Virus record (IMG/VR): IMGVR_UViG_2526164649_000019
DNA length: 6,745 nucleotides
Reading direction: 5' to 3' (one strand)
Source of the DNA: a virus
Taxonomy: Duplodnaviria > Heunggongvirae > Uroviricota > Caudoviricetes
The notes below the pieces were generated by a model, which saw nothing but the letters and a program-made list of their open reading frames with translations, was not told the DNA's origin and did not search any database. Below are positions 1 to 6,745 of this stretch, in pieces. Both the position numbers and the translations under genes were made by a program. How positions within the stretch are numbered: position 1 is the stretch's first letter; each line of letters begins with the position of its first letter.

Positions 1-525
1 CTGCTGAACCAGACGTTCGCTCCTACAGCACCAAATCAGGTCTGGGTGGCGGACCTGACGTATGTTGCCACACAGGAGGGATGGTTGTACCTCGCTGGCA
101 TCAAAGATGTTTATACGTGCGAAATTGTCGGCTACGCCATGGGAGAGCGCATGACAAAAGAGCTGACAGGTAAAGCCCTGTTTATGGCGCTCAGGAGCCA
201 GCGCCCACCTGCCGGGCTAATCCACCACTCTGATCGAGGTTCACAGTACTGCGCATACGATTACCGGGTCATACAGGAGCAGTTTGGTCTGAAAACATCA
301 ATGTCGCGTAAAGGTAACTGTTACGACAACGCTCCGATGGAAAGCTTCTGGGGAACGCTGAAAAATGAGAGCCTGAGCCACTATCGTTTTAATAACCGGG
401 ATGAAGCCATCTCAGTAATACGGGAATACATTGAGATTTTCTACAATCGTCAGCGTCGTCACTCTCGTCTGGGGAATATCTCCCCGGCAGCCTTCAGGGA
501 AAAATATCATCAGATGGCTGCTTAA
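1..525 (+). CDS. IS3-family transposase OrfB, C-terminal catalytic (DDE/rve) portion; 5' end lies outside the window
   Basis: Frame is open from base 1 (LLNQTFAPTAPNQVWVADLTYV...) to TAA at 523-525. Contains rve-type transposase hallmarks: D in ADLTYV, HSDRGSQY, and GNCYDNAPMESFW with the catalytic E context. Family assignment is by motif recall, not a search. Confidence 0.85.
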   Translation: MLNQTFAPTAPNQVWVADLTYVATQEGWLYLAGIKDVYTCEIVGYAMGERMTKELTGKALFMALRSQRPPAGLIHHSDRGSQYCAYDYRVIQEQFGLKTSMSRKGNCYDNAPMESFWGTLKNESLSHYRFNNRDEAISVIREYIEIFYNRQRRHSRLGNISPAAFREKYHQMAA

Positions 526-562
526 AAAAGAACAAATGGTAGTGTCCGCTATTGCCAGTACA
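1..562 (+). mobile_element. Right-hand part of an IS3-family insertion sequence (possibly IS150-group); tentative right terminus ...GCCAGTACA ending at 562
   Basis: The transposase C-terminus ends at 525. IS3-family ends finish in CA, and the reverse complement of 556-562 reads TGTACTG, which matches my recollection of the IS150 terminus. The exact boundary is uncertain by tens of bp. Confidence 0.45.
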
Positions 563-837
563 CCTCACAACGCCATCCTGACAAGCGTTTTATCTTCAAC
601 GGGAATGAGATATGGAAACGTGGAGAATCAACCACAGAGTATACCCGCGCACACCAGCGAACAATCAGACGACTGCGCAGACTCATCGCCAGGAAACAGT
701 ATACAGAAAAATGGTTCAGAAAATATGACACATGGAGCGCCGGATATTACGAACTGATGGCAACAAAACCATTCTGACGTAAACGAAATTAACCATGACG
801 CAATTAAATAAGGCAAGCCGAATACATCAGGAGGACC

Positions 838-1026
838 ATGAACATTTATTTCAGAATAGTTATATCACTGGCAATTATCGCATGTATTTACGGATTAATC
901 GTTCCGGCCCTCATATCAATGAAGGATACGGTAGCAGTGATTTCTGGCTTTGCTCTGGCGTGTCTGACCCCGCCCTGCATTTATGCCATTTATAAGGGTC
1001 TTTCTTTTTCTAAGGATAAAAGATGA
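838..1026 (+). CDS. Small (62 aa) membrane protein with two predicted transmembrane helices; translationally coupled to the downstream SPFH gene
   Basis: Shine-Dalgarno AGGAGG at 829-834, ATG at 838. Two hydrophobic segments (IVISLAIIACIYGLIVPALI and VAVISGFALACLTPPCIYAIY) and a basic C-terminal tail (KGLSFSKDKR), consistent with both termini in the cytoplasm. Its stop TGA (1024-1026) overlaps the next ATG (1023-1025). Confidence 0.7.
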   Translation: MNIYFRIVISLAIIACIYGLIVPALISMKDTVAVISGFALACLTPPCIYAIYKGLSFSKDKR

Positions 1027-1850
1027 AAAAAGTTATTCCTGCTTTAGCCCTTGTTCTGCTGACCACCGGACTTGTCGGTTGCGATCGCGTTGAGCCTGGT
1101 AATGTTGGCATCAAGGTAAACAAACTGGGCGACGATAAAGGCGTCGGAGAAGTGGTCGGTGTTGGGCGCTACTGGACGGGATGGAACACTGAGGTTTACA
1201 TCTTCCCGACCTTCAAACAAATGAAGACCTACGATGAGCCATTCAGCTTCCAGATGAGTGACGGTACAACCATCGGCTATCACATCGGCGTGGCCTACAA
1301 AGTTGATCCATCCAAAGTTACCACAGTCTTTCAGACCTACCGCAAAGGCGTGGACGACATTACCGACACCGACCTGCGCCAGAAGATAGCCGACGCACTC
1401 AACCGACTGGCCAGCAAAATGACCACCGACAAATTTATCGACGGCGGCAAGTCTGAGCTGCTGGATGCAGCTCTTAAAGACATTCAGGAAGAAATGACGC
1501 CCATCGGTATTCAGGTAATGAGCCTCTCATATGTGGGTAAGCCGGAGTACCCGCCTACTGTTATCGACAGCATTAATGCCAAAGTCACGGCGAACCAGAA
1601 AACCCTGCAACGCGAGCAGGAAGTAAAACAGCGCGAAGCGGAAGCCAACATGTTGCGCGCGGAAGCTGCCGGACAGGCAGATGCGATTCGCACAAAAGCC
1701 CAGGCCGAAGCCGATGCTATTCGTTTACGCGGTGAAGCTCTGCGCCAGAACCCAAACGTTATGGAGCTGGAAGCCATCAACAAGTGGAACGGTACACTGC
1801 CGCAATACATGACCAGCGGTGCCAACACACCATTTATTCAGGTTAAGTAA
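1023..1850 (+). CDS. SPFH/band-7 (stomatin/prohibitin/HflKC-like) lipoprotein, predicted inner-membrane anchored with a periplasmic SPFH domain and a C-terminal Ala/Glu-rich coiled coil
   Basis: Signal peptide MKKVIPALALVLLTTGLVGC with lipobox L-V-G-C, followed by Asp at +2 (CD), the classical Lol-avoidance inner-membrane retention signal. SPFH-like core (GRYWTGWNTEVYIFPTFKQ ... IGIQVMSLSYVGKPEYPPTVIDSINAKV) and a heptad-like tail (QREQEVKQREAEANMLRAEAAGQADAIRTKAQAEADAIRLRGEALRQ). RBS AGGA at about 1011-1014. Confidence 0.88.
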   Translation: MKKVIPALALVLLTTGLVGCDRVEPGNVGIKVNKLGDDKGVGEVVGVGRYWTGWNTEVYIFPTFKQMKTYDEPFSFQMSDGTTIGYHIGVAYKVDPSKVTTVFQTYRKGVDDITDTDLRQKIADALNRLASKMTTDKFIDGGKSELLDAALKDIQEEMTPIGIQVMSLSYVGKPEYPPTVIDSINAKVTANQKTLQREQEVKQREAEANMLRAEAAGQADAIRTKAQAEADAIRLRGEALRQNPNVMELEAINKWNGTLPQYMTSGANTPFIQVK

Positions 1851-1857
1851 TACATAT

Positions 1858-1878
1858 GCCCGGTATTACACGCCGGGC
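1858..1878 (+). other. GC-rich stem-loop (6-bp stem GCCCGG/CCGGGC, 9-nt loop) in the spacer between the SPFH and ORF6N genes; no downstream U-tract
   Basis: Inverted repeat read directly at 1858-1863 and 1873-1878. It is followed by GTCTGGAG rather than a T-run, so it is not a canonical intrinsic terminator; it could be an RNA-stability or processing hairpin. Confidence 0.35.
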
Positions 1879-1893
1879 TGTCTGGAGATAAAA

Positions 1894-2643
1894 ATGAATA
1901 CTGTAACCATCAACAACAAACAGTTTCCGGTAATCGAATATCGCGGTCAGCGTGTTGTGACGCTGGCGATGATTGATGAAGTCCACCAGCGACCGGAAGG
2001 AACCGCGCGTGCAGCATTCAACCGAAACCGTGAGCATTTCATCAGCGGTGTGGATTATGCCGAATTAGGTGCGGACGTAATACGTACGGACCTCCCGGAA
2101 GGAACATTCTCTAAATTTGCACCATCGGGGATTGTACTTTTTGAATCAGGTTACCTGATGTTGACGAAGCCATTCAATGACGCCCTTGCCTGGCAGGTTC
2201 AGCGCGAACTGGTTAACAGCTACTTCCGCACTCGCACACCGCTAACGGAAATCGAGATGATCGCTGCGATAGCCGCCGACGCTGTTCGTCAACAGAAGCG
2301 CCTGAATCATGTGGAAGAACAGCTCGAAACAGTCACAGAAGCGGTGGAAACCATCAAACGCGGAAATATGCGCGCCGGATATGTCGGTTACCGCCAGGTG
2401 GTAGCCAAAAGTGGAATGAGTGACGCCAAGTGTCGGAATCTGGTGAACGCATATCAAATTCCTACAGACACCCACGAATTCATGACTCCGGACGGTCTGT
2501 TGTCTCGCAGGGCTATCGTCGAGCTTGAGCCATTTATGGCGGCGTTCCACCAAATGATGTCAGAGGCTGAACCACACGGCACACGCTGGTATCACCCGAA
2601 GATGGGGCTTTTCCAGGTGATCGGATGGGAGGATAAAGCATGA
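1894..2643 (+). CDS. ORF6N / KilA-N-like DNA-binding domain protein (antirepressor-like phage regulator), 249 aa
   Basis: RBS GGAG at 1884-1887, ATG at 1894 (MNTVTINNKQFPVIEYRGQRVVTLAMIDEV...). N-terminal region carries the pattern typical of ORF6N/KilA-N domains (RNREHFISGVDYAEL ... VLFESGYLMLTKPFND). The C-terminal half is helical and of unknown function. The ORF track's longer version (from 1819) overlaps the SPFH gene and lacks an RBS. Confidence 0.8.
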   Translation: MNTVTINNKQFPVIEYRGQRVVTLAMIDEVHQRPEGTARAAFNRNREHFISGVDYAELGADVIRTDLPEGTFSKFAPSGIVLFESGYLMLTKPFNDALAWQVQRELVNSYFRTRTPLTEIEMIAAIAADAVRQQKRLNHVEEQLETVTEAVETIKRGNMRAGYVGYRQVVAKSGMSDAKCRNLVNAYQIPTDTHEFMTPDGLLSRRAIVELEPFMAAFHQMMSEAEPHGTRWYHPKMGLFQVIGWEDKA

Positions 2644-3209
2644 TCATCCAGTCAAAACTTATTCGCGCCGCTCTGGTGTGCGCTGCTAAAAACGACGTTC
2701 GTTATTACCTGAACGGTCTTCACATCACGCCGAAACATATTGAGGCAACCAATGGTTCCGTGGCACTGCGCATGGCTCACGGCATCCGGACGAAGAAAAA
2801 CATCATTGTCCAGTTCGAAGGGGGCGTCCCGGCCAAAGCCGAAACGACAGAGCTGATTTTTAGTAAAGAGCCGATCGCTGTTCATCGCGACCAGTTTCAG
2901 CGACGACTGTCCATTACCGGCATTAAACTGGTGGACGGTTGTTTTCCGGATTTGGATCGCATCATTCCGAAAAAGTTTGACCGCTGTACTCACCCGGTGC
3001 TCCAGGCGGGTTACCTGAGTTATCCAGAGAAGATGTTTGGTCGTGAGCGTAAATTTATTCCCGTCCAGTTACGTCCCTCCGGTGACGGGCAAGCGGTCAG
3101 AATTCAGTTTGATTCCATCATCAACTCAATGTATGGCAATCCTGAATTTGTTGTGATGCCTTGTCGTGATCATGGCGATTTCAACGTGGCTCAGGAGCAT
3201 CCGGAATGA
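2640..3209 (+). CDS. Truncated beta-sliding-clamp (DnaN-like) protein, 189 aa: clamp domain II-like region plus a shortened domain III-like region
   Basis: RBS GGGAGG at 2627-2632; the ATG at 2640 overlaps the upstream stop (ATGA). Motifs colinear with E. coli DnaN as I recall it: NDVRYYLNG, ATNGSVALRM (cf. ATDGHRLAV), IKLVDGCFPDLDRIIPKK (cf. SKLVDGRFPDYRRVLPK) and EFVVMPCRD (cf. the C-terminal AYVVMPMRL). The CDS call is firm; the homology call is less so (about 0.6). Confidence 0.8.
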   Translation: MIIQSKLIRAALVCAAKNDVRYYLNGLHITPKHIEATNGSVALRMAHGIRTKKNIIVQFEGGVPAKAETTELIFSKEPIAVHRDQFQRRLSITGIKLVDGCFPDLDRIIPKKFDRCTHPVLQAGYLSYPEKMFGRERKFIPVQLRPSGDGQAVRIQFDSIINSMYGNPEFVVMPCRDHGDFNVAQEHPE

Positions 3210-3244
3210 AAATCGAATACCAGGACGCCGCAGGAGGTGAATCA

Positions 3245-3328
3245 ATGAGCTGGCCTGATGCAATCGTAACTCTGGGGATGGTATTCGCAGTAGCGTTTGT
3301 TGTGTACTCGATTTGTCGATGGGGATAA
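3245..3328 (+). CDS. Candidate 27-aa hydrophobic single-helix membrane peptide (MSWPDAIVTLGMVFAVAFVVYSICRWG)
   Basis: Near-consensus Shine-Dalgarno AGGAGGT at 3232-3238 with a 6-7 nt spacer to the ATG at 3245. It fills the gap between the flanking genes exactly (upstream stop 3209, downstream start 3333). Too short for the ORF track. Confidence 0.45.
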   Translation: MSWPDAIVTLGMVFAVAFVVYSICRWG

Positions 3329-3332
3329 CCAC

Positions 3333-3575
3333 ATGTTCGCTTTGATTCAACGCGGGCAGATATACACAGACAGAGCCGGATACCCAGTAGAAATTACTCG
3401 CAGTACTGAGCACTCAGTGTTCTTTCGGAGGATGGACGGACGTACCGGGCGAGTACGCATCGGTGAATTCAGTAGCCTGTTCGAGCATATTGACCACCTG
3501 GAATATCACAAGATTCTGGCTGAAACAGAACAAGAAAAGCACCTGAAGAAATTACGCGCAATGCAAAGGAAGTAA
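3333..3575 (+). CDS. Small conserved-looking phage protein, 80 aa, basic C-terminal helix (possibly a DUF4222-type prophage protein; unverified)
   Basis: ATG at 3333, in frame with the ORF-track ORF 3297-3575; the upstream part of that ORF overlaps the peptide gene, so the internal start is preferred. Weak RBS GGGGA. Sits in the operon context just upstream of the integrase region. Confidence 0.6.
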   Translation: MFALIQRGQIYTDRAGYPVEITRSTEHSVFFRRMDGRTGRVRIGEFSSLFEHIDHLEYHKILAETEQEKHLKKLRAMQRK

Positions 3576-3578
3576 AAA

Positions 3579-3725
3579 ATGAATAAAGCGTTTGAGCTAT
3601 GGGTCCACCAGCGTTACGGCAACCACTACGACCTGACGCGAGATGTTGACGGTTTCTACTGTCGTGAAATTGTGAAACGAATGTTTGAGGTCTGGTGCCA
3701 CTGCCGTGGGCTGAGTGTTGTGTGA
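3579..3725 (+). CDS. Small hypothetical protein, 48 aa, with three Cys and one His (MNKAFELWVHQRYGNHYDLTRDVDGFYCREIVKRMFEVWCHCRGLSVV)
   Basis: RBS AGGAAG at 3567-3572, ATG at 3579, 3 nt after the upstream stop. Same strand and tight packing as its neighbours. No function recognisable. Confidence 0.5.
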   Translation: MNKAFELWVHQRYGNHYDLTRDVDGFYCREIVKRMFEVWCHCRGLSVV

Positions 3726-3733
3726 GGTAATGC

Positions 3734-3896
3734 ATGGGCAATGTGATTCAACTGGCTCCCAATGAATGGGTTTGTGAAAGCGTTCTAATCGCAATTACCG
3801 GGCTCAAACCAGGCACAATTCTTCGGGCCCGGAAAGAATGCTGGATGGTTGGAAGAGAGTATATTCACGTATCACCAGACGGTAATCCAAAGCCTT
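3734..3896 (+). pseudogene. int: 5' segment of the tyrosine integrase gene (N-terminal excisionase/AlpA-like HTH DNA-binding domain), cut off from the rest of the gene by an IS911-like insertion; alternatively a separate xis
   Basis: RBS GAGGT at 3725-3729, ATG at 3734. Product MGNVIQLAPNEWVCESVLIAITGLKPGTILRARKECWMVGREYIHVSPDGNPKP resembles Xis/AlpA winged-helix proteins (cf. lambda Xis ...RRWVRECRIF...GREYLF). From 3898 the frame runs into the IS inverted repeat. Removing the IS and one copy of CTT joins this frame in-frame to the integrase body at 5149. Confidence 0.55.
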
Positions 3897-3897
3897 C

Positions 3898-5104
<1,207 letters not shown>

Positions 5105-5109
5105 ATCAC

Positions 5110-5145
5110 CTCTGTTCAGGTGGCCAAATTCAGTGTGCCACTTCA
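5110..5145. repeat. IS911-like left inverted repeat (IRL)
   Basis: Reverse complement reads TGAAGTGGCACACTGAATTTGGCCACCTGAACAGAG; 24 of 36 positions match the right inverted repeat. Confidence 0.8.
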
Positions 5146-5148
5146 CTT

Positions 5149-6239
5149 TTGGGGTAAGTAAAAAAGAAATTACGGTGAAGGAACTTGAAGAAAAGTGGCT
5201 GGATCTGAAACGAATGGAAATCTCTGCAAATGCATTCAATCGCTATGAATCCGTTGCAAGAACGATGGTTCCGAAAATTGGAGGCGGCAGACTGGTGTCA
5301 TCGGTAACCAAAGAGGAATTGCTGTATATCAGGAAAGATTTGCTGACCGGGTATCAGAATTCAACGAAAAACAAAGCAGCAGCAAAAGGACGGAGCGTCG
5401 TTACTGTAAATTATTACATGACGACAATCGCTGGAATGTTTCAGTTTGCTGCAGATCACGGTTACTTAGAAGCAAATCCCTTCCAGGGAATTAAGCCTCT
5501 TAAAAGAGCCAGGGCAGAGCCAGATCCGCTAACTCGTGACGAATTTATTCGCCTGATAGATGCTTGCCGACATCAGCAGACGAAAAACCTGTGGTCATTG
5601 GCTGTGTACACAGGAATGCGTCACGGTGAACTGGTCTCCCTGGCCTGGGAAGATATCGATCTGAAAGCAGGAACTATTACTATCAGGCGCAATTATACGA
5701 AACTCGGTGAGTTCACTCTACCTAAAACTGAAGCAAGTACAAACAGGGTTGTGCATCTTATCCAGCCCGCTATCAGTGTCCTGAAAAATCAGGCTGAAAT
5801 GACAAGACTGGGTAAGCAGCACCACATCAAGGTTCAACTACGTGAATATGGACGTTCAGTGAATCATGAATGTACTTTCGTATTTAACCCCCAGGTGGTT
5901 AGAAAAAGCAAACAGGTAGGTTTTATCTACAAGGTAGATTCCATTGGCGACTCATGGGAAACAGCCATTAAGCGTGCGGGCATCAGGCACCGGAAAGCAT
6001 ACCAGTCACGACACACTTATGCGTGCTGGTCATTATCTGCCGGAGCAAACCCAAGCTTCATTGCCAGCCAGATGGGCCATGCAAGTGCCCAGATGGTGTT
6101 CAATGTATACGGAGCATGGATGACTGACAGTAATGCAGAACAGATCGCAATGCTGAATCAGAAGCTGGCAGATTATGTCTCAATGATGTCCCATGGTCAC
6201 CAAAGTGACACAAGAGACTTATTAAAATCAGTGGGTTAG
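5149..6239 (+). pseudogene. int: 3' segment of a phage tyrosine integrase (core-binding plus catalytic domain), lacking its own start because of the IS911-like insertion
   Basis: Tyrosine-recombinase motifs: Arg in TGMRHGEL (codon 5619-5621), box II region SRHTYACW...GH (6009-6020), and candidate nucleophile Tyr in FNVYGAWM (codon 6108-6110). Stop TAG at 6237-6239. There is no in-frame start between the IS end and the conserved region; the ORF-track start at 5073 lies inside the IS. Confidence 0.85.
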
Positions 6240-6265: not shown

Positions 6266-6745
6266 GTGGAGGGCAACACCACGCTTTACGCCCTGCCGAA
6301 ACCCGAGGTTGTCCTGCGCTGGCGTGAACAGACCACAGATGACTTCCGCTTCTGTTTTAAGTTTCCGGCGACCATTTCGCATCAGGCAGCATTACGACAT
6401 TGCGATGATTTAGTGACTGAATTTTTGACCCGCATGTCACCGTTGGCTCCGCGCATTGGGCAATACTGGCTGCAACTGCCTGCCACATTCGGCCCACGGG
6501 AGCTGCCTGCGCTTTGGCATTTTCTCGATTCTCTCCCTGGCGAATTTAATTATGGTGTGGAAGTCCGCCATCCACAGTTTTTCGCCAAAGGGGAAGAGGA
6601 ACAAACGCTTAATCGCGGTTTACATCAGCGCGGCGTTAATCGGGTGATTTTAGACAGCCGCCCGGTTCATGCATCACGTCCACACAGTGAAGCTATTCGC
6701 GACGCTCAACGAAAAAACCTAAAGTTCCGGTACATGCTGTACTGA
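6251..6745 (+). pseudogene. yecE: 3' portion of the host gene yecE (DUF72 family), interrupted near its 5' end by the prophage; possibly also prematurely terminated at 6743-6745
   Basis: Frame reads ...RHVNCVEGNTTLYALPKPEVVLRWREQTTDDFRFCFKFPATISHQAAL..., which matches my recollection of E. coli YecE from about residue 30 onward. There is no ATG or RBS for this fragment (the ORF track begins it at GTG 6266). yecE is a documented integration site for lambdoid (including Stx) phages. Confidence 0.55.

Follow-up and report, generated by a model that had tools for sequence, protein, structure and literature searches.

Does a gene for an antirepressor-like protein whose stop codon is overlapped by the start codon of a clamp-like gene form a dedicated pair with that gene? 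This question is raised by IMG/VR record IMGVR_UViG_2526164649_000019, a 6,745-nucleotide stretch of tailed-phage (Caudoviricetes) DNA, the whole of which is referred to here as the window. In it, an ORF6N gene of 249 codons (1894–2643, + strand; ATG at 1894 and TGA at 2641–2643) runs directly into a gene of 189 codons (2640–3209, + strand; stop codon at 3207–3209) for a relative of the bacterial β clamp, which we call the half-clamp. A sequence-only reading of this DNA had proposed a two-gene module, with matched expression of the two proteins and possibly a toxin/antitoxin-like or sensor/effector function. The explanation that we favour, and that we regard as probable though far from secure, is that the two genes are cistrons of an early phage operon and that the half-clamp, a clamp reduced to its peptide-binding pocket, travels on a small cassette that settles behind any kind of antirepressor-like gene.

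The downstream gene encodes a clamp-like protein, as had been proposed from the sequence. It matches phrog_3007 (5.9e-65), and its PGAP name is ‘beta clamp domain-containing protein’. In single-sequence scans its matches to the bacterial β clamp, DnaN, are below threshold (Pfam DNA_pol3_beta_2, 17 vs. 27 bits; TIGR00663, 21.2 vs. 137.65). A profile built from 25 homologues aligns with E. coli DnaN at E = 7e-13, placing residues 5–154 of the half-clamp on DnaN 136–293, and in the profile the C-terminal FVVMPCR aligns with YVVMPMR of E. coli DnaN. The AlphaFold2 (AF2) model of the protein has a mean confidence (pLDDT) of 91.8, and the 50 best matches listed by Foldseek in the PDB are all bacterial DnaN. 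The DnaN profile match and the AF2/Foldseek results bear out the identification.

The Foldseek alignments cover about 255 columns for the 189-residue query, and the half-clamp thus has a gap of about 65 residues with respect to DnaN. Residues 1–115 correspond to DnaN domain II (approximately 133–250), and the last 75 residues fit DnaN 313–366 (11.9 bits) rather than 251–312 (0.8 bits), with the motifs GFNxxY and VVMPxR. The possibility that the C-terminal third represents the first half of domain III, and so retains Ile272/Leu273, was rejected on the basis of these scores, the motifs and the gap. The E. coli DnaN sequence used in this C-terminal comparison, and in that of the pocket columns below, agrees with the stretches present in the profile alignment. 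As judged from the profile and the predicted structure, the half-clamp is a DnaN derivative in which β-clamp domain II is joined to the C-terminal half of domain III, a total of 1.5 of the three clamp domains; it is without domain I and DnaN residues 251–312. In E. coli, the ring-closing dimer interface of β sets Ile78 and Phe106 of domain I against Ile272 and Leu273 of domain III (PMC11139829); with domain I and residues 251–312 missing, both sides of this interface are absent. The half-clamp has neither the three tandem clamp domains of DnaN nor its head-to-tail dimer interface.

This reduced form is characteristic of a large family, which comprises 996 clusters (50% identity) at E ≤ 1e-10. 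None of the best 150 representatives exceeds 214 residues, most of them having 170–214, and no fused domain was found among these 150. Two apparent fusions, P0015 and P0035, were rejected as read-through or mis-start artefacts. The annotation ‘DNA polymerase III beta subunit’ is misleading for the family, and the PHROG label of phrog_3007, ‘RusA-like Holliday junction resolvase’, is wrong, being unsupported by sequence or fold; the latter label has spread to many RefSeq phage annotations.

What the family has retained is the pocket of β that receives clamp-binding motifs (CBMs). Using the published list of subsite I and II residues (PMC11139829), the mean frequency of the top residue is 0.71 in pocket-equivalent columns vs. 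0.34 elsewhere (Mann-Whitney p = 5e-7; 141 representatives at 50% identity). Ten residues, namely: R152, L155, T172, G174, H175, P242, Y323, M362, P363 and R365, are kept as in E. coli in 80–99% of members. By this alignment, the CBM pocket is the most conserved feature of the half-clamp family; the binding of peptides to it is a prediction only. His175 of DnaN bridges the two pocket subsites.

The upstream gene, too, is what it had been taken for, an ORF6N/KilA-N-type gene. Its 249-residue product consists of an ORF6N N-terminal domain, a long central helix and a C-terminal domain. The first of these, a putative DNA-binding domain of the KilA-N superfamily (residues 13–92; 1930–2169, + strand), matches Pfam PF10543 above the cut-off (47.6 vs. 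27.8 bits; 2.1e-12), and the protein matches phrog_1726, ‘anti-repressor’, at 5e-70, a correspondence at the level of the name. Homologues of the same length are 98% identical to it over their full extent. By their family matches, both reading frames of the pair are genuine genes. The C-terminal domain, here called type A (residues 122–247; 2257–2634, + strand), matches phrog_6610 (function unknown; 6e-23) and has no match in Pfam. In relatives the type-A domain also stands behind Rha-type and Bro-N-type N-terminal domains, and ORF6N, Bro-N and Rha domains are freely shuffled with at least four types of C-terminal domain. The KilAC/ANT domain (PF03374) gave no match in the window's protein at E ≤ 0.1; a relative upstream of another clamp (L204) carries it weakly. 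NCBIfam returned no match for the ORF6N protein or for a 62-residue peptide encoded further upstream, and the AF2 model of the ORF6N protein, calculated from 28 homologues of 81–98% identity, is unusable (pLDDT 42). ORF6N-related sequences are far more numerous than clamps, forming 1,893 clusters at 90% identity vs. 78 with the same tool.

Direct reading of the sequence confirmed the junction between the two genes as it had been described, i.e. an ATGA stop/start overlap (2640–2643, + strand) and a GGGAGG Shine-Dalgarno sequence (2627–2632, + strand) that lies within the ORF6N coding sequence, 7 nt before the ATG at 2640. The ORF6N gene has a Shine-Dalgarno sequence of its own, GGAGA (1884–1888, + strand), 5 nt before its ATG. 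In order to compare related loci, we assembled 101 loci whose clamp shares at least 53% identity with that of the window, added two deep relatives and reduced the set to 60 clusters by a cut at 97% nucleotide identity over the three-gene region. The arrangement is kept in these relatives: the clamp start lies within a few bases of the end of the upstream gene in 47 of the 60 non-redundant loci, with ATGA or TAATG and a GGAGG-type Shine-Dalgarno sequence, the overlap in most of them being 4 bases (ATGA) or 1 base (TAATG). However, ATGA also occurs in the window where the genes for a small membrane peptide and an SPFH protein meet (1023–1026) and between the clamp gene and the next open reading frame (3206–3209). 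Three further junctions of the operon have gaps of 8 nt or less; overall, ATGA or a near-zero gap is found at 6 of 7 junctions. Since other junctions have it too, the overlap is a packing rule of this operon and not the mark of a special pair. Taken alone, the overlap is no proof of a dedicated two-gene unit or of matched amounts of the two proteins, and the step from overlap to matched levels that had been taken earlier does not follow. The strong Shine-Dalgarno sequence also allows independent initiation on the half-clamp gene.

In 49 of the 60 clusters the clamp start coincides with the end of an antirepressor-like gene (ORF6N, Bro-N or Rha type); L204 and L207, in which the annotated gene directly adjoins the clamp, are counted among them. 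In 7 more (56 in total) such a gene is found within 1.2 kb, separated from the clamp by one to three small genes (Lar-like, 190-residue or 81–113-residue genes). The 4 clusters with no antirepressor-like gene are all from Klebsiella, and there the clamp follows kil. The upstream proteins belong to at least six unrelated antirepressor architectures, and the arrangement extends to distant clamps: in Providencia phage PSTCR3 a clamp of 32% identity stands behind a protein with a Rha N-terminal and a type-A C-terminal domain, in Morganella pMM1680-3 one of 31% identity stands behind a protein with ORF6N and an ANT-like C-terminal domain, and in a prophage with a P4-like integrase the half-clamp follows a short Rha protein. 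Of 5,426 complete E. coli genomes, only 60 have the clamp, and in these it nearly always comes after an ORF6N gene; a Bro-N gene precedes it in at least one of the genomes listed.

As a control, we examined left arms anchored on a conserved 48-residue gene (p48) near xis (n = 51, non-redundant). Neither gene is present in 43 of these arms, both are present in 7, an antirepressor-like gene alone in 1 and a clamp alone in none (Fisher p = 7e-8), i.e. an antirepressor-like gene is found in 7/7 clamp-bearing vs. 1/44 clamp-less arms. That antirepressor-like genes are constant residents of the operon, and the association trivial synteny, is rejected by the 43 of 51 clusters without one. Thus, antirepressor-like genes are not constant residents of the operon, and their association with clamps is real at the level of the class.

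Seen from the ORF6N gene, the relationship is a different one. Of the 80 IMG/VR homologues most similar to the ORF6N protein of the window (84–99% identical), 24 are followed by the clamp; the other 56 are not, and a 112-residue phrog_37628 gene, a 123-residue gene, a PrtN-like gene or nothing is found downstream. The ORF6N gene is also present, without a clamp, in phages phi467 (92% nucleotide identity) and CharmingMan (89%). In phi467 (L001, 4001–5307) the phrog_37628 gene lies between the same ORF6N gene and a small gene of family phrog_1001, at the place of the clamp; in L021, L118 and L119 it sits after the clamp instead. Nor do the two proteins vary together. Clamps that are 89–98% identical sit behind upstream proteins of 19–24% identity, or behind a Lar-like protein, and there is no sign of a co-evolved interface, since near-identical clamps follow unrelated upstream proteins.

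More distant half-clamps are found in other settings altogether. In Shewanella phage 1/41 and an E217-like contig the half-clamp gene stands alone among tail genes and is read from the opposite strand, and in other lineages it lies after ParB-like genes (Jersey-like virulent phages), before Dam or after a λ P-like gene; on a plasmid it follows ArdA (L202, pSTEC648_2). The lone, moron-like half-clamps among tail and baseplate genes of E217-like phages comprise L201/L292 (phage 1/41), L291 and L295, and phage 1/41 has a gene of the Acb2/Tad1-hairpin family approximately 2 kb from its half-clamp. Neighbours of anti-restriction type recur in L202, L007/L060, L205 and L296, with ArdA upstream, a Lar-like gene between the antirepressor-like gene and the clamp, or Dam downstream.

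Taken together, these comparisons describe a link that is one-sided and at the level of a class: the clamp goes with any antirepressor-like type, and antirepressor-like genes are mostly clamp-free. Of the proposed two-gene module, the part that stands is that the clamp is accompanied by the antirepressor class; the dedicated pairing of this ORF6N gene with this clamp does not stand, given the 56 of 80 homologues without a clamp, the lack of co-variation, the insertions between the two genes and the distant relatives with no antirepressor-like gene. Likewise, the co-occurrence across genomes suggested earlier as a check finds the two genes apart in most relatives from the ORF6N side only, and holds at class level from the clamp side. 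The toxin/antitoxin and sensor/effector readings, and with them a role in defence, are unsupported, as the pair shows no PADLOC match and no promoter-like site; PADLOC gave none for the ORF6N protein, the half-clamp, the 62-residue peptide or the SPFH protein.

The position of the two genes suggests when they would be expressed. In intact relatives (Fels-1, PSTCR3 and pMM1680-3) the same genes lie on one strand between a cI-like repressor gene and xis-int, and in the Klebsiella loci just downstream of a homologue of λ Kil. From this position between cI-like gene or Kil and xis-int, we take the ORF6N and half-clamp genes to be cistrons of the leftward early operon. In the explanation that we favour, the first gene would encode a mosaic antirepressor-like protein with a putative DNA-binding ORF6N N-terminal domain, and the half-clamp, rather than a sliding clamp, would be a soluble pocket module produced in the course of lytic growth. 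Its ligands would be LF-type CBM peptides from phage proteins or from proteins of the host that replicate or repair DNA, and it would act as a decoy or an adaptor. We infer this role from sequence and model, reading the half-clamp as a pocket-only protein and not as a ring because the interface is lost and the pocket is the most conserved feature. The half-clamp gene would travel as a small cassette, usually together with a 74-residue phrog_1001 gene, and in temperate phages of Enterobacterales this cassette would be placed almost always directly behind, and translationally coupled to, some antirepressor-like gene.

Several points weigh against this explanation. Codon 40 of the window's half-clamp (2757–2759) specifies Ser at the equivalent of DnaN His175, and among E. 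coli alleles more than 96% identical this position is S, F, C or H, as against His in 89% of the family at large. In the lineage of the window the pocket may thus have changed or come under weaker constraint. Pocket conservation could also partly mirror fold constraints common with DnaN. A general competitor for CBMs would also affect the host's Pol III, on which lambdoid phages depend, and the explanation thus presupposes selectivity. It is conceivable, too, that four copies of the 1.5-domain protein could make up a ring of six domains. In addition, the association samples are drawn from ‘best 80’ IMG/VR lists and related phages, and their loci are not independent.

The link between the two genes could alternatively be physical, and we consider it possible, if rather unlikely, that they encode a true two-protein complex, in which an LF tail of the antirepressor-like protein docks in the CBM pocket of the half-clamp and brings a clamp mimic to specific DNA or uses it as an adaptor, much as phage regulators elsewhere act by way of a clamp. 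The earlier suggestion of a regulator that recruits a clamp mimic is likewise possible. In favour of a complex are the strong adjacency at class level and the conserved coupling, which reach clamps of 31–32% identity. Furthermore, a hydrophobic-G/S-x-F motif, like AMSLF of the δ subunit, is found near the C-terminus in three of four tail types and in the Lar-like protein (type A, ...HPKMGLFQVIGW; type D, ...DLKSLFGEKK), and Mu MuC, which uses the host β clamp for late transcription, offers a precedent (PMC12867686). However, the type-C tail has no LF motif and the type-A tail also occurs in many clamp-less ORF6N homologues. The absence of co-variation, with clamps of 89–98% identity behind proteins of 19–24% identity, also speaks against a complex, as do the intervening genes in 7 and the missing antirepressor-like gene in 4 of the 60 loci, and the distant half-clamps with no such neighbour.

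We are equally doubtful of a purely syntenic explanation, in which the junction after antirepressor-like genes is a module boundary where cassettes are swapped, and the overlap is a product of compact packing. It would account for the ATGA or near-zero gaps at 6 of 7 operon junctions, for the lack of co-variation and for the variety of genes at the same junction in close ORF6N homologues (phrog_37628, 123-residue or PrtN-like gene, or nothing), including the 112-residue gene of phi467 between ORF6N and phrog_1001 genes. It is at odds with the p48-anchored operons, most of which have no antirepressor-like gene although every clamp-bearing one does (7/7 vs. 1/44), and the at least six unrelated antirepressor architectures upstream of clamps are hard to obtain without selection for the arrangement, which is spread over Escherichia, Salmonella, Klebsiella, Serratia, Xenorhabdus, Photorhabdus, Providencia and Morganella. 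Many records annotate the half-clamp as a true, though small, processivity clamp that serves phage DNA replication; this seems to us very improbable, in spite of its clear homology to DnaN and its place after a λ P-like replication gene in one lineage and after a ParB-like gene in Jersey-like phages. With 1.5 of three domains it lacks both sides of the dimer interface, as defined by the residues in PMC11139829, and its TIGR00663 score is far below the cut-off (21 vs. 138 bits). Its gene lies in the accessory left arm near xis/int and not in a replication module, and is often a lone gene among tail genes.

A bolder version of the pocket-only explanation can be put forward as a speculation, and one that we think less likely than either the complex or pure synteny. 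Half-clamps would be widespread, so far undescribed pocket-only mimics that capture host CBMs and, in temperate phages of Enterobacterales, are targeted or regulated by the antirepressor-like protein encoded upstream. The captured host proteins may include Pol III α or δ, Hda, translesion synthesis polymerases, MutS/L and RecBCD. If true, this would be a new strategy of host takeover or anti-defence, and would fit the occasional ArdA, Lar and Dam neighbours.

Several known systems share parts of this arrangement. β*, an internally initiated short form of DnaN, comprises domains II–III, and the N-terminus of the half-clamp, at about DnaN residue 133, lies near the β* start. With full-length E. 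coli DnaN (PDB 1MMI/2POL) the half-clamp has in common the fold, sequence homology in domain II and in the region of the C-terminal strands, and the pocket residues; it differs in its length (189 vs. 366 residues) and in being a phage- or plasmid-encoded, stand-alone family, phrog_3007. The ORF6N protein resembles antirepressor-like mosaics (KilA-N/ORF6N, Bro-N and Rha; e.g. P22 Ant) in its shuffling of N- and C-terminal domains and in its PHROG ‘anti-repressor’ match; such domain shuffling was reportedly described by Iyer et al. in 2002. Antirepressors of the P22 Ant type have a KilAC/ANT C-terminal domain, whereas the C-terminal part of the window's protein has no Pfam match and its gene lies in the leftward early operon, not in an immI-type region. 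Clamp-dependent transcription is known from phage T4, in which gp45 works with gp33 and gp55. Phage Mu presents a like concept, a DNA-binding regulator, MuC, that works with the host β clamp through a clamp-binding motif (PMC12867686). In both the Mu and T4 systems a complete ring is loaded on DNA, whereas the half-clamp cannot form a canonical ring. The window's ORF6N protein also has a KilA-N-type domain in common with another prophage-encoded protein, BstA. BstA is an abortive-infection protein of Salmonella prophages with a KilA-N domain that acts on replicating phage DNA. It differs from the present case in having another C-terminal domain and no clamp-like partner, and the window's pair has no PADLOC match and no promoter-like site from which it could be expressed in the lysogen.

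Both genes already carry generic names in RefSeq; what is new is the β clamp reduced to its pocket. Our targeted literature searches found no paper on an ORF6N/half-clamp pair or on phage DnaN-like proteins. The β clamp is a hub of bacterial replication and repair, and an antibiotic target since all of its partners bind one pocket. The list of host proteins with clamp-binding motifs is growing, with RecBCD as an example (PMC13254535). Against this background, the half-clamp family offers a natural stand-alone copy of the pocket without the ring, carried by phages and plasmids. Sequestration of CBMs, if true, would give mobile elements a new means of redirecting the replication, repair or recombination of their host, and would provide a ready-made tool for probing clamp interactions. 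Furthermore, the recurrent place of the half-clamp behind KilA-N, Bro-N and Rha genes gives a concrete starting point for experiments on a vast group of phage proteins, most of which have no assigned function.

In the window itself, the presumed cassette is no longer whole. The stop codon of the clamp overlaps the start of the 74-residue phrog_1001 gene (MKIEYQDYGAV...) in 48 of the 60 clusters, which makes this neighbour as frequent as the antirepressor-like gene; it is also present in the Klebsiella loci that have no antirepressor-like gene and in both deep relatives. Its product has no match in Pfam, and no function is assigned to it in PHROG. Relative to L048 and L056, a clean deletion of 1,146 bp with a breakpoint at about 3226 has removed this gene from the window: positions 2600–3226 of the window correspond to L048 4961–5587, and positions 3226–3728 to L048 6734–7235. 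The local module is therefore already incomplete. In place of the gene there is a chimeric open reading frame of 40 codons (3206–3328, + strand), in which the first 7 phrog_1001 codons are fused to a small membrane peptide; this peptide has its own start, ATG at 3245, and a Shine-Dalgarno sequence, GGAGGTG.

The window represents the left arm of a lambdoid prophage of E. coli/Shigella that is defective and adjoins yecE; the DUF72 (yecE-like) gene that flanks the integrase (6266–6745) is taken by us to be yecE. Downstream of the half-clamp, toward xis-int, the operon continues with a DUF4222 gene, the 48-residue gene (p48) and an excisionase gene whose 3′ end is replaced by an insertion sequence (3333–3931, + strand). 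This insertion, an IS911-like element of the IS3 family (3898–5150, boundaries approximate, − strand; integrase side 5160–6239), disrupts both xis and int, having replaced the 3′ end of xis and the first 85–90 or so codons of the integrase gene, so that the prophage remnant is unable to excise.

With regard to transcription signals, a crude scan found no σ70-like promoter in 500–4000, vs. a mean of 4.4 in shuffled sequence, a result with which expression is still possible. Such a scarcity would fit a long early operon that is transcribed by read-through. The terminator scan found none that was convincing, doing no better than in shuffled sequence, the stretch between the SPFH and ORF6N genes folds into no more than an ordinary hairpin (z = −1.4, without a T-tract), and an Rfam scan of the window gave no match.

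On the left, the 3′ fragment of an IS3-family transposase gene (1–525) cuts off the phage operon, and no gene is assigned to the stretch 526–837. Next in the operon comes the gene for the 62-residue small membrane peptide (838–1026, + strand), which is ATGA-coupled to an SPFH/Band-7 lipoprotein gene (1023–1850, + strand), both lying upstream of the ORF6N gene in the same operon. This pair recurs upstream of several antirepressor types (L007, L089, L099 and L104), and E. coli plasmids also hold matches to the SPFH gene.

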